Below, one piece after another: positions 4,148-26,808 of a stretch of DNA of 64,000 nucleotides (positions within the stretch are counted from its first letter, which is position 1; each line of letters starts with the position of its first letter). The DNA comes from Candidatus Pampinifervens sinense. GTDB lineage: Bacteria > Aquificota > Aquificia > Aquificales > Aquificaceae. A program made the translations under genes and the position numbers. The stretch spans positions 32,001 to 96,000 of the forward strand of contig JAXSPP010000003.1 in the NCBI GenBank assembly GCA_037927135.1, written 5' to 3'. A model generated the notes under the pieces. It saw only the letters and a program-made list of their open reading frames with translations, searched no databases and was not told where the DNA came from.

Positions 4148-4806
4148 TGCTTATAGCGGTGCCTCTTTCGGACAAAAACTTTGAAGAAAATCTAAGGCTA
4201 TGCAAAGAAGAGGGTGCGGACATAATAGAGCTTAGGGTGGACCTCTTTGAAAACAAGGATCCAGACTTTGTGCTAGAATGCATAAAAAGGGTTCAAAGCA
4301 TAGGACTTAAAACCATACTAACTGTAAGGAGTGAAAAGGAAGGGGGGACAAAGGTAGAAAATAGGCTGGACATATTCAAGGCCTGCGCACCCCAAAGCGA
4401 CTACACGGACATAGAGCTCTCCTCCAGAGAAATCCTCCCTTATGTGAAGGAAATAGTCAAAAGCTCTGGTAAAAAGCTCATCATCTCTTACCACAACTTT
4501 GATCTTACACCACCCAATTGGATACTAAGAGAGATATTCAGAGAAGCAAAAAGGTGGTCTGCGGACATTGTAAAGATAGCGGTGAAGGCCAACTCTTATG
4601 AGGATACGGCAAGGCTTTTGTGCCTTGGAAGGGAAGAGGAGGGAGAAAAGATTCTCATAGCCATGGGGGACTATGGAAAAGTATCAAGGGTAGCTGGCTT
4701 TGTCTTTGGCTCTGTTATAACCTATTCCTTTGTGGGCTCTGCTGTAGCACCGGGGCAGATAGAATTGAGGGAGATGGTAAGGATTAGGTCCCTTCTTTTC
4801 TCTTAA
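4144..4806 (+). CDS. aroD: Type I 3-dehydroquinate dehydratase
   Basis: ADIIELRVD, ILTVRSEKEGG, SYHNFDLTP, ADIVKIAV, APGQ. Confidence 0.93.
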   Translation: MMLIAVPLSDKNFEENLRLCKEEGADIIELRVDLFENKDPDFVLECIKRVQSIGLKTILTVRSEKEGGTKVENRLDIFKACAPQSDYTDIELSSREILPYVKEIVKSSGKKLIISYHNFDLTPPNWILREIFREAKRWSADIVKIAVKANSYEDTARLLCLGREEEGEKILIAMGDYGKVSRVAGFVFGSVITYSFVGSAVAPGQIELREMVRIRSLLFS

Positions 4807-5125
4807 GGTCTATAAACTCCACCTCCTTATAGTAGGTGGGTCTAAAGAATATCCAGTGCTTTAAGTTCTCCGGTGTTTTTGAATAGCAAACCTCACAGAG
4901 GAGGCCTTCCTGCGTTATCTTTGAGTTGTCATCACAGCAGTCTGTGAGGTTCCAAAACTCGTAGTTGTCATGAAAGATAAGCTTACCGCAAGAAAGGCAC
5001 TCATAGAGCCTACAGCCCTTTGAGGCCAAAAAATCTTCAAGCTCCATATCTTCTGGCAGGCTTTCAAGCTCAAAGACATTCTTTAAAAACTCCTTCTGTC
5101 TTTCTTCAAGCTCTCTTATCCTCAT
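4784..5125 (-). CDS. Hypothetical Cys-rich (CxxC/CC/CxxC) putative metal-binding protein
   Basis: CLSC, CC and CEVC motifs; host-like codons; ATG 5125 lies just after the upstream stop. Confidence 0.6.
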   Translation of the reverse strand: MRIRELEERQKEFLKNVFELESLPEDMELEDFLASKGCRLYECLSCGKLIFHDNYEFWNLTDCCDDNSKITQEGLLCEVCYSKTPENLKHWIFFRPTYYKEVEFIDLKRKEGT

Positions 5126-5129
5126 GTCT

Positions 5130-5645
5130 TCACCTAAAGAGGGAAATCTTTTCAAAGACGCCCTTTACATAGTCCCAGTTGTTTGCCCTTAGCCCGTTGT
5201 ATGCTTTGACAGCCATCACCCAGTTTCCAAACCTTTTGAAGTTCTCATAGAGTATCCTTGCACCTATCTCTATGTTGGTCTCTATATCATAAAGCTGGTC
5301 TGGGTTTTCTATGCCATACTCCTTCATAAGCCTTAGATTGTGCTGGTAATTGACCTGCATAAGGCCCCTGTCTTCTGTGCCGTCCTTGTTTTTGTTGTAA
5401 GCCCATGGGTTGAAGTTGCTCTCCTGCTTTATGATGGCAAGGATTAGCTCTTTTGGTATGGAGTATTTTTGTGAGACCTCTTCCACCTTTGCCTTTATTC
5501 TGGCGTCTATGGGTATATCTATCTTGGGTTCCTTGTTATTGATTCCACCTATGGCAGACTGAAGATAAAAACTAAAGTCTTCTCTTGGCTTTATATGTGC
5601 TTCCCTTGTGGTCTTGAGCTCTAGCTTCCAGCCTTCCACCCTCAT
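5130..5645 (-). CDS. Lytic transglycosylase (SLT domain), no signal peptide, FlgB-like N-terminal peptide
   Basis: AIIKQESNFNP, GLMQVN, NIEIGARIL, AYNG. Confidence 0.9.
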   Translation of the reverse strand: MRVEGWKLELKTTREAHIKPREDFSFYLQSAIGGINNKEPKIDIPIDARIKAKVEEVSQKYSIPKELILAIIKQESNFNPWAYNKNKDGTEDRGLMQVNYQHNLRLMKEYGIENPDQLYDIETNIEIGARILYENFKRFGNWVMAVKAYNGLRANNWDYVKGVFEKISLFR

Positions 5646-6088
5646 GTCTTTTTTCCCTTACACTCCGAACATACACCAAAGATCTCAAGCCTGTGATTTA
5701 GAGGAGTAAAGTCGTGCTCTTCGCATACCTTGTCTTGTAGCTCCTCTATTTCCTCCTTGTAAAACTCTATAATCTTCCCACATTCAACGCATATAAGATG
5801 CTCATGGTGGGGCTTTCCAGCAACAAACTCGTATATGGTCCTGTTTCCAAGCTTTATAACCTCCCTTATGGCTCCAAACTCCTGAAGAAGTCTGACCGTT
5901 CTATAAACGGTGGACCTGCTGGCTATGGACCTGTCCTGATTGGCAATCCACCTCACCAGCTCCTCTATCTCAAAATGAGGACCATAGCTGGCTATCTTAT
6001 CAATTATCTCAAACCTGCCCTTTGTTACCTTATAGCCCTTCTGTCTCAAAAACTGCTCAAATTTACTCTTTAACTCTTCCAACTGCAT
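5642..6088 (-). CDS. fur: Fur-family transcriptional regulator
   Basis: STVYRTVRLL, HHEHLICVECGKIIEF, C-terminal CSEC. Exact subtype (Fur/Zur/PerR) not resolved. Confidence 0.85.
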   Translation of the reverse strand: MQLEELKSKFEQFLRQKGYKVTKGRFEIIDKIASYGPHFEIEELVRWIANQDRSIASRSTVYRTVRLLQEFGAIREVIKLGNRTIYEFVAGKPHHEHLICVECGKIIEFYKEEIEELQDKVCEEHDFTPLNHRLEIFGVCSECKGKKT

Positions 6089-6799: not shown

Positions 6800-7646
6800 C
6801 GGCTCTGCCTTTCTTTATAGAAGCTTTTTTGCCCTACCACCCCTTTCTACCTCAAAGGGCTTTCCCACCGGTGCCATATACGGCTTTATGAGGGCCATCT
6901 TTGCCCTTCTGAAGACGGAAAAGCCTGTCTATTTTGCCATAGCCTTTGACCTTCCAGCGCCTACAAAAAGGGAAAGCCTATACAGGGAATACAAGGCCAA
7001 AAGGCCCACCATGCCAGACCCACTAAAGGTGCAAATACCGGTTATAAAGGAGCTTGTGGACCTTCTTGGCATAAAAAGGTATGAGATAGAAGGCTACGAG
7101 GCCGACGATATAATAGCCACACTGGCTTTGAGAGCCCTTGAGAAGGGCTTTTTTGTAAAGGTTTACTCTCCGGACAAGGACATAATGCAACTGGTGGGCG
7201 ACAGGCTTGTGGTGATAAACCCCATAAGCGGTGAGGTCTTTGACAAAAAGAAGGTTTTGGAGAAGTTTGGAGTTCCACCGGAGAAGCTAAAGGACTATTT
7301 GGCCCTTGTGGGCGATAAGGTGGACAACATAGAAGGAGTAAAAGGCGTTGGGCCAAAGACGGCCATAAGGCTACTCCAGCAGTATGGAAGCGTGGAAAAC
7401 ATCCTAAGAAATTGGGAGGACTTTAGGCTTTCCTTCCCTCAGGCAAAGAAGGAAGACCTTGAGCTTGCCTTGGCCTTGCTTGAGCTACACACAGTGGAAG
7501 GCCTTGACTTTGATGAAGAGAGTTTAAAGCTAAAGGAGCCGAACATACCAGCCCTAAGAAAGAAGTTTGAAGAGCTTGAGATGAAAAGCCTTATAAAGGA
7601 GCTAGAAAACCTTTCAAAGAGGGTAGCCCAAAGGAGCCTCTTCTAA
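6777..7646 (+). CDS. Stand-alone 5'-3' exonuclease / flap endonuclease (PolA N-terminal-like)
   Basis: LLDGSAFLYRSFFA, YKAKR, EADDIIATL, DKD, LVGDKVDNIEGVKGVGPKTA. No polymerase domain. Confidence 0.92.
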   Translation: MKVLYLLDGSAFLYRSFFALPPLSTSKGFPTGAIYGFMRAIFALLKTEKPVYFAIAFDLPAPTKRESLYREYKAKRPTMPDPLKVQIPVIKELVDLLGIKRYEIEGYEADDIIATLALRALEKGFFVKVYSPDKDIMQLVGDRLVVINPISGEVFDKKKVLEKFGVPPEKLKDYLALVGDKVDNIEGVKGVGPKTAIRLLQQYGSVENILRNWEDFRLSFPQAKKEDLELALALLELHTVEGLDFDEESLKLKEPNIPALRKKFEELEMKSLIKELENLSKRVAQRSLF

Positions 7647-8365
7647 AAGCTTTGGTTGAACCTCTCATAAAGGCTGTCCAAGGACCTTATGAGGTTTGCG
7701 TAGGTCTCGTGGACCCTGTGGGTTTGTATAAGGTTTGCCATCTCAAGTATGGGGTTCACGTTGGACATCTCAAGGTATCCTTGAAGGATCCTGAAGTTTT
7801 GCGCTGGCTGAGGCTGGCCTAAAAAGAGGTCCCTTCCTATCTTTTGAGGGTTTTCAAGCCTGAAGATGCCAAGGGTTGCCACCTGCACGTTGTTTACAAA
7901 AACAGACCCATCCCTTCCAAAGGTAGGCACTCCCTCAAGCCTGATTTCATTCAAGTTCTGGTCAAGGACTCTGTAGCCAAGTTCGTTTACCAAAAAGCCG
8001 TCCCTATCAAGCCTGAAGTTTCCCTTCCTTGTATAAAAAACCTCCTGCCCTCTCCTTACAGCAAAAAAGCCCTCACCCTCTATGGCAAGGTCAAGGGGGT
8101 TGGAAGTCTGCCTGATAGGGCCTTGAGAGAGGTCTGTAAAGACCCTTTCTATTATGGGATAAAGGAAGTTATTGTTTGGGTTTTGAGGGTCCGTATCCAT
8201 TATCCTTTGACCCATCGGTGTTTCCCAAAGGCTTGCAAGCATGAGGTCCCTTTTAAAGGAAGGTGTATCCACGTTGGCAAGGTTGTTGGTGATGACCTCC
8301 AGCTTTCTCTGCTGGAGGAGCATACCGCTTGAGAGGATATAAAGGGGCTGGTATTCTATGGCCAT
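7643..8365 (-). CDS. flgF: Flagellar basal-body rod protein, FlgF/FlgG family (probably FlgF)
   Basis: NNLANVDTPSFK, LDLAIEGEGFFAV, YTRKGNF, GYLEMSNVN. 240 aa. SD before ATG 8365. Confidence 0.75.
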   Translation of the reverse strand: MAIEYQPLYILSSGMLLQQRKLEVITNNLANVDTPSFKRDLMLASLWETPMGQRIMDTDPQNPNNNFLYPIIERVFTDLSQGPIRQTSNPLDLAIEGEGFFAVRRGQEVFYTRKGNFRLDRDGFLVNELGYRVLDQNLNEIRLEGVPTFGRDGSVFVNNVQVATLGIFRLENPQKIGRDLFLGQPQPAQNFRILQGYLEMSNVNPILEMANLIQTHRVHETYANLIRSLDSLYERFNQSF

Positions 8366-8407
8366 TTCTTCCCTCCTTCCTTTTTGGAATATTTTAAAAT
8401 AAAGCTT

Positions 8408-8854
8408 ATGCTTACAATAGCCTTGGGGTCGGATCATGCGGGCTACTCCCTAAAGGAGAAGATAAAAGAGTTTTTGCTTTCAAAGGGTTATAGGGTGCTT
8501 GACTTTGGCACTCAATCTACAGAATCTACAGACTATCCACTTTTTGCAAAGGAGGTGTGTCTCTCCATCCAAAGGGGGGAGGCCCAAAGGGGCATCCTCA
8601 TATGCGGTACTGGTATAGGCATGGCTATAACGGCCAACAAGTTCAAAGGCATTAGGGCAGCCTTATGTCTAAACGAGTATATGGCAAGGATGAGTAGGAA
8701 GCATAACGATGCCAATGTGTTATGTCTAGGAGATAGGGTCATAGGGGATGACCTGGCCCTCTCCATAGTAGAAGCTTGGCTTTCCACCGACTTTGAAGGT
8801 GGAAGGCACGAAAGAAGGATAAGGCTTATAAAGGAGATAGAGGATATGCTATAA
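8408..8854 (+). CDS. rpiB: Ribose 5-phosphate isomerase B
   Basis: GSDHAG, ICGTGIG, HNDANVLCLG, FEGGRHERR. Confidence 0.95.
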   Translation: MLTIALGSDHAGYSLKEKIKEFLLSKGYRVLDFGTQSTESTDYPLFAKEVCLSIQRGEAQRGILICGTGIGMAITANKFKGIRAALCLNEYMARMSRKHNDANVLCLGDRVIGDDLALSIVEAWLSTDFEGGRHERRIRLIKEIEDML

Positions 8855-13065: not shown

Positions 13066-14493
13066 ATGTTTAAAAAGGTTCTGATAGCCAACAGAGGAGA
13101 GGTGGCCCTAAGGATAATAAGGGCCTGTGAAGAGCTTGGAATAAGAACGGCAGCCATATACTCTGAAGCGGATACAAAATCCTTGTATGTGAAAAAGGCA
13201 GATGAAGCCTATTTGATCCCTGGTGACCCTATCAGAGCTTACCTTGATTATGTGAGGATAGTGGACCTTGCCAAATCTATAGGTGCCGATGCTATACATC
13301 CAGGCTATGGCTTTTTGGCTGAGAATGCAGACTTTGCAAGATACTGTGAAAAGAGGGGAATAACCTTTATAGGACCATCACCGGAGCATATAGAGCTCTT
13401 TGGAGATAAGGTAAAGGCGAAGAAAGCTATGGAGAAGCTTGGCATACCCACCATACCCGGCTCTCCAGAGCCTCTTAGAAACTATGAGGACGCCCTGCAC
13501 TACGCAAGGGAGATAGGCCTGCCTGTAATACTCAAGGCTGCGTACGGTGGTGGGGGAAGGGGTATGAGGGTTATAAGGAGTCTTGAGGAGCTTCCAAGGC
13601 TTTTTGAGTCGGCATACAGGGAAGCGGAAACCTTCTTTGGAAAGGGAGATCTGTTTCTAGAGAAATACCTTGACAATCCAAAGCACATAGAAGTTCAAAT
13701 CATAGGCGACAAGTACGGCAATGTGGTCCATCTTGGTGAAAGGGACTGTTCTGTCCAAAGGAAGCATCAAAAGATCATAGAAGTCACACCCTGCCCAGTT
13801 CTTCCAAAGGACCTAAGGCAGAAGATGCTTGGATTGAGCGTTAAGGCCATGATGCAAGTGGGCTACTATAGTGCAGGCACCCTTGAGTTTTTGGTGGACC
13901 TCAAAAATAAAGAGTTTTACTTTATAGAGATGAACACGCGCCTTCAGGTGGAGCACACCATAACGGAGATGGTTACAGGTATAGACATTGTGGAAACTAT
14001 GATAAGGGTAGCCATGGGCGAACCTCTACCCTTTACCCAAAGCGATATAACCTTTAGGGGCTATGCCATAGAGTTTAGAATAAACGCAGAAGATCCAAAA
14101 AGGAACTTTGCTCCTGCACCAGGGAAAATAACGGCCTACTACTCGCCCGGTGGGCCTGGTGTAAGGATGGATGCGGGCGTGTATAAGGACTACGTTATAC
14201 CACCCTATTATGATTCTATGATAGCAAAGCTTAGCGTTTGGGCCCTAACATGGGACAGGGTTTTGGCTAGGGCAAGAAGGGCCATAGACGAGTTTATAAT
14301 AAGGGGAGTCCCTACCAATATACCCCTTCACAGGGAAATAATAAGGGATCCAGACTTTATCTCTGGCTACTTTGGCATAAGGTTCCTTGAGGAGAAGCTA
14401 CCTACCTATGACTTTGAGATTGAGGGAGAGAGGGATCCAGAAACCCTTGCCCTAGCCCTTTCAGCGGCCATAGCAGCCTATTACGGACTGTAA
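13066..14493 (+). CDS. Biotin carboxylase subunit, probably subunit A of a two-subunit pyruvate carboxylase
   Basis: KKVLIANRGE, HPGYGFLAEN, GGGGRGMR, ERDCSVQR, EMNTRLQVEH, YYDSMIAKL. The C-terminal LSAAIAAYYGL tail is typical of PycA/CfiB-type subunits rather than AccC. Confidence 0.85.
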   Translation: MFKKVLIANRGEVALRIIRACEELGIRTAAIYSEADTKSLYVKKADEAYLIPGDPIRAYLDYVRIVDLAKSIGADAIHPGYGFLAENADFARYCEKRGITFIGPSPEHIELFGDKVKAKKAMEKLGIPTIPGSPEPLRNYEDALHYAREIGLPVILKAAYGGGGRGMRVIRSLEELPRLFESAYREAETFFGKGDLFLEKYLDNPKHIEVQIIGDKYGNVVHLGERDCSVQRKHQKIIEVTPCPVLPKDLRQKMLGLSVKAMMQVGYYSAGTLEFLVDLKNKEFYFIEMNTRLQVEHTITEMVTGIDIVETMIRVAMGEPLPFTQSDITFRGYAIEFRINAEDPKRNFAPAPGKITAYYSPGGPGVRMDAGVYKDYVIPPYYDSMIAKLSVWALTWDRVLARARRAIDEFIIRGVPTNIPLHREIIRDPDFISGYFGIRFLEEKLPTYDFEIEGERDPETLALALSAAIAAYYGL

Positions 14494-15227
14494 TCTATGC
14501 TCACCCCCTTGCTTTCAAATCCAAGGGGATTTATAACCTTTACAGTGAACGTGGTCCTATCCTTAGGCAAAGGAAGTTCAAAGGAATAGCCCACCGTCCT
14601 TCCCACCTCTTTTCCCTTCTCATACACCACAAACTCCCTGTATTCATCCCTATAGAACCAAACAAGGTAAAGCTTACCTTCCCCCACTCTAACTTCAAGA
14701 TCCTCCACATCCTTCACCAAGGGTGGTAGTTTGGGCTTTACGCAAAGTTTTACTGGATCACTCTCCAAAGGACCCTTTACCCCAGTAATGGCAAAACACC
14801 TCTCCCAGTAATCCCTCTCAATATGGACCCTATCCCTAAAATCTTTGGCCTCTTCCAAGTCTATGTTCTCCTCTTTTACAGGATATATCCTGTAAGAATC
14901 AAAGCCAAAGGCTCTTAACTCTATACCATCCTTATCTTCCTTTACACTCAAAGATGGCCTTTCTTCCAGCCTACCTTCTACGCAAAACTTACGAGACTTG
15001 CCACCCACCCTTTCCACAGAAAAGCAAAAGGCCTCCCTATTCTCCTTAACCCAGTAGCTTCCCCTCCTTTCAAACTCCCTTACCCTTACCTCTCCAGAAA
15101 GGCTTTTAACATATACCCTATCACCTATCCTCCTTATCCATACCTCAGGCTCTTTCAATACTTCCGGATTGGCCTTTATACCACAGCCTGCGGAAAAAAG
15201 GGTGATAAGGAGAAGGCCTTTTTTCAT
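14481..15227 (-). CDS. Hypothetical lipoprotein, possible FnIII-like C-terminal domain
   Basis: Lipobox MKKGLLLITLFSAGC; beta-rich C-terminus (LYLVW...VKVINPLGFES). Confidence 0.6.
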   Translation of the reverse strand: MKKGLLLITLFSAGCGIKANPEVLKEPEVWIRRIGDRVYVKSLSGEVRVREFERRGSYWVKENREAFCFSVERVGGKSRKFCVEGRLEERPSLSVKEDKDGIELRAFGFDSYRIYPVKEENIDLEEAKDFRDRVHIERDYWERCFAITGVKGPLESDPVKLCVKPKLPPLVKDVEDLEVRVGEGKLYLVWFYRDEYREFVVYEKGKEVGRTVGYSFELPLPKDRTTFTVKVINPLGFESKGVSIDYSP

Positions 15228-18608: not shown

Positions 18609-20111
18609 TTAACCCTTACTCTTTAACCATTTTCTTAATATCTTTGCCACCTTTTCTGGCTCCTCTTTTGCCACCTTGACTATCGCTTCTACAGCCTCTA
18701 CCTTTTCAGCCTTCAGCCTTATCTCTTCTGCAGCTTCTATAGCTTCAATGGTCGCTACACCTGTAGGAACGGGCATGGGAGGAACCTCTTTCTTCTTAAA
18801 GAGTTTCCTTAAAGCTACCAGCAGTATTGTAAGTGCTATAAGTGATAGGATCATAAGAAGGGCTATCTTTATATACCTTTCATAGTCTGGTGCGGGTCTT
18901 TCAATGGGGGGTCTTTGGAAGGGTATGGCTTCAACGGTAATGGTGTCACCCCTTTGAGGATCTATACCTGCAGAAGCCACCACTATCCTCCTCACCTTTT
19001 CTATATCCAAGTTCTTTATGTTCGCATCTACCACCACACCCACACTCAGCCTTTTAACCTTTATAAGCGGGTCTATTGTATAAACCTCCTTTTTGCTTAC
19101 CTCATAGTTGGTTATAGTCTCGCTCTTTTCTGTGATAACCTGACCACCGCCAGCCACAGCCCCAACTCCTGGTGGTATATTGGCCTGTGCACCGGGCACA
19201 CCAGCCACACCCCCACCTATAGTCCTTTCCTTCTTCTTCTGCTGGCTTACTATCGCCGTCATATCTGGGTCATAGACCTCCTCCTTTTGCTCCCTCTTTG
19301 TAAGATCAAGCTCTGCGGAGACCTTGACCCTCGCAGATCCAGGCCCAAGCACATCTTCCAATGCCTTTTGAATCTCCTTCTCAAGCCTTCTTTCAAACTC
19401 CAGCTTCAGCTTCAGCTCTTTATCTCCTACAGGCTCCTCCTCTTCCAAAAGGGCCGTAAGGTCCCTTCCAAGGTTGTCCACCACCACAACCTTTTGAGGT
19501 CTAAGCCTTGGAACGCTCGCAGAAACGAGGTTTCTTATTGCTTTAACTTGTTCTGGTGTGAGTTCATAACCAGGCTTTAGCTTTATGAATACGCTAGCTG
19601 TAGGCTCCTCTTCTTCCCTTACAAATATGGACTTTTGAGGCATGCCTATGCTTACCCTTACATCCTCCACCCCTTCCATCCTGAGTATAGTCCTTGCCAG
19701 CTCACCTTCCACAGCCCTTTTGAAGTTCACCTGATTTTGAAAGTCGGAGACACCTATACCAGTCTTGTCAAAAACCTCATAACCCACTATGCCTTTACTA
19801 GGAATTCCTTTTGCTGCAAGCTTAAGCCTTATGTCCCTTGCCCGGTCTTCTGGAACAAGTATACTCCTTCCGTCTTGACCCACCTTATAGCTTACACCTT
19901 CCTTGTCCAGTTCGGTCATTATGGCCGACATGTCCTCTTGAGAAAGGCCTGCGTAAAGTATGGTATAGCTTGGCTTTGTGGCAAAAGTTGCCATTAGGAT
20001 AAGAAATGTAAGGGCAAGGGCAGGAAGGCCAATTACAAGAAGTTTTTGAGTGAGTGGAAGGCTTACAAACTTATCCTTTAAGTTGTTTATAACCTCTCTA
20101 ATTTCGGCCAT
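18609..20111 (-). CDS. fliF: Flagellar M-ring protein FliF
   Basis: GYEVFD, RAVEGELARTI, PTASV, RLSVGVVVD, two TM segments, C-terminal ILRKWL. Confidence 0.95.
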   Translation of the reverse strand: MAEIREVINNLKDKFVSLPLTQKLLVIGLPALALTFLILMATFATKPSYTILYAGLSQEDMSAIMTELDKEGVSYKVGQDGRSILVPEDRARDIRLKLAAKGIPSKGIVGYEVFDKTGIGVSDFQNQVNFKRAVEGELARTILRMEGVEDVRVSIGMPQKSIFVREEEEPTASVFIKLKPGYELTPEQVKAIRNLVSASVPRLRPQKVVVVDNLGRDLTALLEEEEPVGDKELKLKLEFERRLEKEIQKALEDVLGPGSARVKVSAELDLTKREQKEEVYDPDMTAIVSQQKKKERTIGGGVAGVPGAQANIPPGVGAVAGGGQVITEKSETITNYEVSKKEVYTIDPLIKVKRLSVGVVVDANIKNLDIEKVRRIVVASAGIDPQRGDTITVEAIPFQRPPIERPAPDYERYIKIALLMILSLIALTILLVALRKLFKKKEVPPMPVPTGVATIEAIEAAEEIRLKAEKVEAVEAIVKVAKEEPEKVAKILRKWLKSKG

Positions 20112-20114
20112 CCT

Positions 20115-20396
20115 TTATACCTGCATCCTGTTTAGCTCTTGATAGGCTTCAAGGAGCTTGTTTCTCACCTGGATAAGCAGGTGCAAAGCCACATTCGCCT
20201 TCTCAAACTCAATGACCATCTGGTGTAGTGGAATCTCTTCCCCTTTTAAAACTGCTTCCTTTACAGCCCTCGCCTTCATCTGCTCTTGGTTCACCCAATG
20301 CAAAAACCTGCCAAGCTCCTTTAAAAAGTCTCCTCTTTCTGTTCTTTTTGTTTCAAAGCCCCTTCTTAAAAGTCCACCTATTTCCCTTATCTCCAT
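20115..20396 (-). CDS. fliE: Flagellar hook-basal body protein FliE
   Basis: LHQMVI...QVRNKLLEAYQELNRMQV. Confidence 0.93.
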   Translation of the reverse strand: MEIREIGGLLRRGFETKRTERGDFLKELGRFLHWVNQEQMKARAVKEAVLKGEEIPLHQMVIEFEKANVALHLLIQVRNKLLEAYQELNRMQV

Positions 20397-20800
20397 AGCT
20401 CTAAAGTCCTTTGTGCTATCTCCCTTGTCATCTTAAAGGCGTTGAGGTTTGCCTCATAGCTTCTCATGGCCGAGATCATGTCCGCCATCTCCTTTACAAG
20501 CTCTACATTGGGGTATCTTACAAAGCCTTCCGCATCCGCCCTTGGGTTTGCAGGGTCAAAGACAATCCTAAAAGGCTCCTGAGATTCCCTTATCTCCCTT
20601 ACAATTACAGGCACATAGCCCTTCTGAAGGTTTTCTGGACTCTCTATAGCTTCAAAGACAGGTTCTAGCTTTCTAAAAGGTTCTCCTGTTGTCCTATAAG
20701 ATTCAAAGTTGGCTATGTTGCTTGCAATAGTATTCATCCTTATCCTCTGCGCATACATACCGCTGGCAGATATCTCAAAGGCTCTAAAAAGGTCTATCAT
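20387..20800 (-). CDS. flgC: Flagellar rod protein FlgC
   Basis: ISASGMYAQRIRMNTIASNIAN, DPANPRADAEGFVRYPNV, MRSYEAN. Confidence 0.95.
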   Translation of the reverse strand: MIDLFRAFEISASGMYAQRIRMNTIASNIANFESYRTTGEPFRKLEPVFEAIESPENLQKGYVPVIVREIRESQEPFRIVFDPANPRADAEGFVRYPNVELVKEMADMISAMRSYEANLNAFKMTREIAQRTLELWR

Positions 20801-21168
20801 TATCTTCCCTCCCTTATGACCGTCCTTAGCTTCTCAAGGCTACCTGTAGCAAACCTCATATAAACCTCATAGGCTATCCTGTTTTGACTCAGCTTTGCCA
20901 TCTCCTCCTCTATACTGACATCGTTTAGATCGTTGCCAACTAGCCTTTTCCTCACTTCAAAGACCTTAAAGTTTTCTGAAGATGTAGGCTTTATATGCTT
21001 CTCTCTTGTTGTTTTGAGCTTTGCTGGCATATCAAGGCTGAAGGCCACATCCTTTGTCCTGTAGTTTGGAGTGTCCGCGTTGGCAATGTTGCTAAGTATT
21101 ACCTTATGCCTCTTCCATGTGTAGTCAAGGTAGGGCACGACCCCCCTTACATCCTTGAATATATCCAT
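20800..21168 (-). CDS. flgB: Flagellar rod protein FlgB
   Basis: SNIANADTPNYRTKDVAF, NDVSIEEEMAKLSQN. Confidence 0.93.
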   Translation of the reverse strand: MDIFKDVRGVVPYLDYTWKRHKVILSNIANADTPNYRTKDVAFSLDMPAKLKTTREKHIKPTSSENFKVFEVRKRLVGNDLNDVSIEEEMAKLSQNRIAYEVYMRFATGSLEKLRTVIREGR

Positions 21169-21172
21169 CCTA

Positions 21173-26808
<5,636 letters not shown>

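Follow-up and report, generated by a model that had tools for sequence, protein, structure and literature searches.

For confining wall cutting where FlgJ lacks a hydrolase of its own, two forms are known, namely fusion of a hydrolase to FlgJ and Sec export of a separate enzyme that is then captured by FlgJ. Dual-domain FlgJ is the first form, and FlgJ is exported through the flagellar type III gate in other bacteria. Small transglycosylases with a single SLT domain also serve the type III machine of injectisomes; these enzymes, EtgA, IagB and IpgF, carry Sec signal peptides. EtgA is linked to the inner-rod protein EscI, as far as the title of structure 8urn and a table in PMC1084347 go. The separate flagellar form is represented by SltF of Rhodobacter sphaeroides and LTaseBb (BB0259) of Borrelia, which according to the accessible parts of the reports are exported by Sec and recruited through FlgJ, with SltF encoded in a flagellar operon (PMC7277832, PMC8517470). 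Here we analyze a 171-residue lytic transglycosylase (the SLT gene, 5130..5645) in a 64,000-nucleotide stretch of Candidatus Pampinifervens sinense, a bacterium of the hot-spring Aquificaceae (contig JAXSPP010000003.1, positions 32,001 to 96,000, or C3:32001-96000 in our contig numbering). We call this whole stretch the window; plain coordinates refer to it, and all features so given lie on its minus strand. The N-terminus of the enzyme appears to copy the loop by which the proximal rod protein FlgB docks on the membrane/supramembrane (MS) ring.

The setting resembles that of SltF and BB0259 in that a separate SLT enzyme, by the accessible text of PMC7277832 and PMC8517470, accompanies a FlgJ with a rod-binding domain only. 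FlgJ of this genome, encoded on another contig, has 88 residues and the rod-binding domain alone (Rod-binding score 23.9 bits, just below the cut-off of 25.1), which answers the question, raised in the original prediction, of whether it lacks a hydrolase domain. Unlike SltF and BB0259, however, the focal SLT lacks a signal peptide, is encoded in a fur operon and bears the loop by which FlgB binds FliF. With dual-domain FlgJ it would share a wall-cutting domain brought to the nascent rod by flagellar export; in contrast to that protein, there is no FlgJ fusion in this genome, and the targeting element would be the FlgB loop copy.

The catalytic part is well preserved. The Pfam SLT domain (PF01464) scores 93.5 bits (cut-off 21.3) over residues 55-163 (5157..5483), and 88 homologues of the protein were found. 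In an alignment of 36 of these sequences, the catalytic Glu75 (5421-5423) of the E-S motif and the following Ser76 are invariant. Among solved structures EtgA of the EPEC type III system is closest (8urn_A, E 4.2e-9; 4xp8_A, 1.6e-5), ahead of Slt70. By these sequence criteria the protein is an active-looking, small transglycosylase of the EtgA/IagB type: like EtgA, IagB and IpgF, it has a single small SLT domain with the E-S...GLMQ(V/I)N motifs and would serve a type III machine. It differs from them in having no signal peptide, in starting with a copy of a rod-protein loop, and in being associated with a flagellum and not with an injectisome.

The original prediction had noted that the enzyme lacks a Sec or lipoprotein signal, and hydropathy agrees. 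The highest mean over ten residues on the Kyte-Doolittle scale within the first 45 residues is 1.10, versus maxima of 2.65-3.55 in the three other SLT-domain proteins of the genome, all of which have hydrophobic leaders. The product starts with MRVEGWKLELKTTREAHIKPREDFSFYL. Since M1 is invariant, the open frame continues upstream for just 4 codons, and the ATG and the stop codon of the preceding fur-family gene overlap as ATGA, we place the start upstream of the FlgB-like motif; a true start downstream of it, which would have removed the motif from the protein, is not what these features indicate. In the AlphaFold2 model (mean predicted local distance difference test, pLDDT, 83.5), the catalytic domain exceeds 90, residues 1-40 have block means of 49-63, and the linker (residues 29-54, 5484..5561), which is poorly conserved and variable in length in alignments, ranges from 52 to 78. 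A short helix is modeled at residues 24-33, and F24-x-x-x-L28 sits immediately ahead of the linker. From this model, residues 2-28 are probably disordered when alone. A predicted unstructured N-terminus and the lack of a Sec signal are features of early type III substrates as well.

The similarity between the two proteins was first seen as a short peptide. SLT residues 10-20, LKTTREAHIKP (5586..5618), and FlgB residues 51-61, LKTTREKHIKP (20986-21018), are identical at 10 of 11 positions, and both the residues and their positions in the original prediction are correct. FlgB has 122 residues (20800..21168) and was identified by the Pfam family Flg_bb_rod, by named homologues and by solved FlgB chains. 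BLASTP extends the match to SLT 9-26 on FlgB 50-67 (11/18 identical). Codon-by-codon reading also bears out the synonymous differences that had been reported, which affect five of the ten identical residues (aag/aaa, acc/aca, agg/aga, gaa/gag, cca/cct); over the 11-mer, 25 of 33 nucleotides are identical.

Taken alone, a 10/11 match of this kind is not significant genome-wide. The whole genome (12 contigs, 1.546 Mb) yielded 1614 crude open reading frames (ORFs). Among their products, 191 pairs have an 11-residue stretch in common with at least 10 identities, and 19 of these pairs are isolated, having no wider similarity. Low-complexity stretches, P-loops and pilin leaders make up most of the isolated pairs. 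In ten shuffled proteomes, 0-5 isolated pairs were obtained at this threshold, with a mean of 1.6; by a rough scaling of the genome-wide figure, far fewer chance matches would be expected inside one 64-kb window.

What lifts the likeness above chance is that both families conserve the motif, that their profiles match each other, and that six-frame scans return little else. In the 36-sequence SLT alignment the consensus start is MRIExxxLxLKTTRxxHIxxxxExFxxxL, and L-K-x-T-x-x-x-H is kept in 31 of the 36, the exceptions being two variants of 240 residues and three distant proteins. Across 28 SLT N-termini taken from genome loci, M1, L10, K11, T13, R14, H17 and F24 are invariant, and M1 and the motif are conserved in orthologues from Hydrogenobacter, Thermocrinis and Aquifex. 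Conservation of the motif in SLT orthologues had been named beforehand as decisive; together with a start upstream of the motif, it argues, at the level of sequence, that the N-terminal peptide is under selection. In FlgB of 30 Aquificaceae, L51, K52 and T54 are invariant and H58 is nearly so. When the SLT N-termini were aligned with the FlgB alignment by hhalign, SLT residues 2-28 (5562..5642) matched FlgB residues 44-70 (20959..21039) over 27 columns, with a probability of 95.4% and an E-value of 1.9e-8.

Pattern and profile scans point the same way. The relaxed motif K-[TIVA]-T-[RK]-x-x-H-[ILVT] occurs in the six frames of the own genome only in SLT, in FlgB and at the end of one 99-codon frame. 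A profile of the SLT N-terminus, scanned over six frames of 90 Aquificaceae genomes, finds SLT in 33 of them, and 47 of the 50 other rows at E <= 0.1 lie inside FlgB frames (coordinates compared by eye). In Aquifex-type genomes the FlgB match covers profile positions 2-55; in Hydrogenivirga, which has no SLT gene, FlgB is the sole profile match in 17 of 19 genomes. A search of 1.84 billion representative proteins with the N-terminal module profile gave 7 matches at E <= 0.001, of which 6 are SLT or SLT fragments. The seventh, a 3534-residue repeat protein with six copies of EMKTTRTEHDG, was taken as chance. The module was thus not found outside the SLT family among the 1.84 billion proteins, at a search size for which the FlgB match is too short to surface.

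The FlgB counterpart of the SLT N-terminus has a documented partner in Salmonella. There, according to the part of the report available to us, the FlgB insertion 58-82 packs on the inner face of the FliF beta-collar, and FlgB His72 and FliF Asn365 form a strongly co-varying contact pair (Johnson et al., bioRxiv 10.1101/2020.12.05.413195). The insertion loop of our FlgB (residues 44-70) aligns to Salmonella FlgB V63-Q76, and in the Aquificaceae FlgB profile LKTTREKHI falls on Salmonella L65-I73, with H58 opposite His72 (numbering counted from the printed alignment). FliF (18609..20111) contains the region of ring-building motif 3 (RBM3) and the beta-collar at residues 228-400 (18912..19430), within which N335 of TNYEV (19107-19109) aligns with Salmonella Asn365 of SNYEV; N335 is invariant in 10 Aquificaceae FliF sequences. 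The residues of the contact pair are therefore kept in this genome: H58 in FlgB, H17 in SLT and N335 in FliF. flgC and fliE (20115..20800; Pfam Flg_bbr_C, Flg_bb_rod and FliE) complete the flgB-flgC-fliE-fliF operon.

Because its FlgB counterpart aligns to the FliF-binding insertion of Salmonella, we regard the SLT N-terminus, on sequence grounds, as a copy of the loop with which FlgB docks on the MS ring. The likeness to the insertion on the FliF collar in Salmonella structures 7BIN, 7NVG and 7CGO comprises L-x-x-T-x-x-x-H-I, a histidine equivalent to His72 and the conserved asparagine of FliF. The difference is one of context, as the segment is an internal loop of a rod subunit there and the free N-terminus of an enzyme without rod helices here. 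Pfam finds no Rod-binding domain in the focal SLT and no match to Flg_bb_rod or Flg_bbr_C, and the terminal helices of rod proteins are absent; unlike an axial rod protein, it shares the insertion loop only.

A predicted complex weakly supports docking. Four FliF(228-400) chains, supplied with a 10-row alignment, were co-folded with SLT(1-45), supplied with a 28-row alignment. The modeling had been proposed with the original prediction, and for FliF it gave scores of 0.45, 0.11 and 0.39 (median 0.39), versus 0.00 for the best of three controls. The runs share at least 45% of their contacts, and the partner has a pLDDT of at least 41. For comparison, of 157 solved complexes 116 reach the co-fold mark, as do 2 of 215 mismatched pairs, and scores up to 0.60 are found for just 18 of those 157, plus both passing mismatches.

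Among 178 Aquificota genomes, orthologue-level SLT matches (E <= 1e-30) occur in 42, all of the family Aquificaceae. Equivalents in other Aquificota families were considered and rejected, their SLT matches being Sec-signal proteins without a FlgB-like start. Within the own genus, 20 of 25 genomes have an intact or contig-cut SLT gene, and all 20 have FlgB, FlgJ or FlhA; in one of them, G056 (75% complete), FlgJ is the sole flagellar marker found. Where a genome is complete enough to judge, motif-bearing intact orthologues are always accompanied by flagellar markers.

Loss of the gene was seen along with loss of flagella. In G055 (99% complete; no FlgB, FlhA, rod C-terminal domains or FlgJ), SLT is cleanly deleted between fur and the downstream ORF, and G068 (65% complete, no flagellar marker found) has the same deletion. 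In G049 (99% complete; no FlhA, FlgB or FlgJ) the gene is frameshifted. A piece of a rod gene beside this broken SLT was considered as a sign of decay and ruled out, as the contig stops within it. In G066 (95% complete), where FlgB, FlhA and rod C-terminal domains were not detected, no SLT gene was found, and the contig breaks off at fur. In a maximum-likelihood tree built from DNA of the neighboring genes fur and thiE (23 rows, two g7 rows with fur only), G049, G055, G066 and G068 fall at four distinct places between flagellate genomes; support is 100/99 for the clade of G049, 92/85 for the grouping of G055 with G052, and 100/100 for that of G066, G065 and G069. Co-loss in non-flagellate species, which had been proposed as a check, is thus borne out: none of the non-flagellate genomes has an intact gene.

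Hydrogenivirga has no focal SLT gene. Twelve of 17 FlgJ (Rod-binding) matches in this genus lie in frames of at least 200 residues, and the four long examples examined are all fusions of Rod-binding and SLT domains located after flgI, 227-232 residues in length (L105:482-1180 (-), L107:393-1091 (-), L106:483-1166 (+) and L111:244-936 (+)). The fusions of G010 and G017 were confirmed by Pfam, and those of G013 and G024 were read from motifs. Their SLT domain (GxWQLMP...AYNWG) is of another subtype than the focal enzyme.

The explanation that we favor, and to which we give an even chance, is that this lytic transglycosylase is a substrate of flagellar type III secretion and that mimicry of the FlgB loop anchors it at the MS ring. 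We infer both export and docking on FliF. As there is no Sec signal, the most likely route of the enzyme out of the cytoplasm would be the flagellar type III export gate, with the N-terminus leading. Residues 2-28 would then dock on the inner FliF collar, which in the Salmonella structure offers 34 sites, 5 of them later taken by FlgB, and the enzyme would be parked there. The flexible linker of about 26 residues could keep the catalytic domain above the opening of the MS ring, facing the wall, so that peptidoglycan would be cut exactly where the rod passes. A further step, which we consider doubtful, is that the SLT is among the first cargoes of the nascent export gate, and that FlgB competes for the collar sites and displaces or silences it.

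By this account the enzyme would be associated with the MS ring rather than with the rod, because the site of the FlgB loop in Salmonella, as described in the part of the report seen, is the inner face of the FliF beta-collar. The flagellar link of the original prediction is supported, and its placement at the rod would give way to the more specific site. An enzyme without a signal peptide that has taken over the FliF-docking loop of FlgB would, if real, be a third solution to confining wall cutting, next to FlgJ fusion and capture by FlgJ. If FlgB does compete for the collar sites, this rivalry would set the order in which the peptidoglycan is opened and the rod assembled, making the enzyme an MS-ring-tethered autolysin timed by mimicry, a targeting principle not described for flagellar or injectisome hydrolases. 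The collar would also be an assembly platform for non-axial proteins, and enzymes in other phyla may likewise start with a loop copied from the FlgB of their own genome. As the hypothesis rests on a short peptide (T13, R14, H17) and one partner residue (FliF N335), it is directly testable. In agreement with what had been stated at the outset, our literature search, which left subscription journals mostly uncovered, found no description of this targeting mechanism, of a hydrolase with a FlgB loop or of hydrolase docking on FliF, and no paper on aq_1579.

Several observations weigh against the favored explanation. The co-fold pass is weak and may reflect memory of, or likeness to, the solved FlgB-FliF complex, and the alignments fed to the co-fold differ from those used to calibrate the tool. 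Co-variation between the two peptides is also weak: over 24 genomes, the SLT peptide scores a mean BLOSUM value of 33.4 against the FlgB loop of its own genome and 31.0 against the loops of other genomes, and label permutation gives a p of 0.018 on genomes that are related, while 11 of 120 permutations at genus level reach the observed value. The SLT gene lies outside the flagellar operon; its translation is coupled to that of a fur-family gene, and non-flagellate relatives retain the latter. In the flagellate G019 and G027, genera g11 and g12, and G007, G077 and G078, neither the SLT gene nor a long FlgJ was found. Because these relatives have neither the gene nor a fused FlgJ, the enzyme is dispensable in some lineages. 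In genus g5 the SLT orthologue (about 240 residues) has lost the motif although flagella are kept. Finally, F24-x-x-x-L28 lies 20 residues behind the hydrophobic V3, a short spacing.

The patchy distribution fits a helpful but nonessential function, as the hydrolase activity of FlgJ is described for Salmonella in the accessible part of PMC13584718. Strict co-variation of SLT and FlgB genome by genome, which had been suggested along with conservation of the motif, was rejected as weak and not significant at genus level, and only the conservation stood; both peptides keep one consensus, which fits a common invariant partner without proving one. Three-way co-variation with FliF gave no signal either, since Asn335 is invariant. 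It is kept even in FliF of g5, whose FlgB loop reads LKITNPKKQIQP and has Gln in place of the His.

The best-surviving alternative keeps flagellar type III export and takes the FlgB-like segment for an export or ordering signal, or for a ligand of FliE, FlgC or the FlgJ cap instead of FliF. The missing Sec signal and the disordered N-terminus suit an export signal, and the conserved F-x-x-x-L after the motif resembles the gate-recognition motif 36-FLTLL-40 of FlgD (PMC8983047). F24-x-x-x-L28 could be such a motif, although hhalign puts the stretch inside the FlgB-like module and the spacing is short; the motif of Salmonella early subunits lies usually at least 30 residues from the N-terminus, with a minimum of 19 (PMC8983047). 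The segment in FlgB itself lies at residues 44-70, behind the N-terminal helix, unlike the early-subunit signals that have been described. A partner other than FliF would agree with the weak co-fold pass and with the recruitment of the known separate flagellar SLTs through FlgJ, as stated in the available parts of PMC7277832 and PMC8517470, but the sole contact documented for the FlgB insertion, in the portion of the Salmonella report seen, is the FliF collar. We consider this alternative unlikely.

Less probable still is that the N-terminus regulates the catalytic domain of its own protein, at a site that the FlgB loop can also bind, so that arriving FlgB switches the activity. Rod proteins, FlgB among them, modulate the activity of SltF, by the accessible text of PMC7277832, and the closest solved relative, 8urn, is an EscI-EtgA fusion, EtgA being an enzyme that works with the inner-rod protein EscI. 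The low AlphaFold2 confidence at residues 1-45 gives no sign of packing on the catalytic domain, the contacts themselves not being reported, and the segment matches the very part of FlgB that is documented to bind FliF. That the enzyme is a housekeeping transglycosylase, with a FlgB likeness due to chance or a functionless relic and a coincidental flagellar link, is very improbable: about 1.6 single 10/11 matches per shuffled proteome, the location in the fur operon and the absence from some flagellate relatives would allow it, but the motif is conserved in both families with the profile match given above, the N-terminal profile matches almost only FlgB elsewhere in the 90 genomes, a periplasmic substrate without a signal peptide needs another export route, and the gene is lost or broken, with its neighbors kept, in three separately placed non-flagellate genomes.

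The Fur-family regulator gene directly upstream (5642..6088; Pfam FUR, 113 bits) adjoins SLT in 27 of 30 orthologous loci from Hydrogenobacter- and Thermocrinis-type genomes. A metal regulator and a putative flagellar autolysin would share one operon here. Five nucleotides past the SLT stop, a Cys-rich ORF of 113 residues with CxxC pairs and no Pfam family (4784..5125) is conserved beside SLT within the genus and stays when SLT is deleted. A rod gene of the FlgF/FlgG type (7643..8437; Pfam LlgE_F_G_D1, Flg_bbr_C and Flg_bb_rod) lies 2 kb from SLT.

Some minor observations concern related genomes. The g5 orthologues of SLT (L086-L089) keep the MRIE start, have LKTTR..HI replaced and have gained a segment of about 70 residues (FIPFTKDGFMS...MFKFFD). 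G066 still shows a FlgJ-like Rod-binding match that exceeds the Pfam cut-off (G066:C107:959-1060) despite the other markers being undetected, and this may be a leftover gene or reflect an assembly gap. In the flagellate G064 (86% complete), neither the SLT gene nor fur was found. The FliF match of a complete Thermocrinis-type genome (L100, G074:C1:615851-616438) contains an in-frame TAG, which may stem from a sequencing error or indicate either a broken fliF or read-through.

Within the window, the ORFs at 14481-15227 (248 residues) and 1351-2877 (508 residues) have no Pfam match at E <= 0.001. Directly upstream of flgB, a tetratricopeptide repeat (TPR) protein of 590 residues with a hydrophobic N-terminus is encoded at 21173-22945, and it could be a candidate for a flagellar accessory protein.

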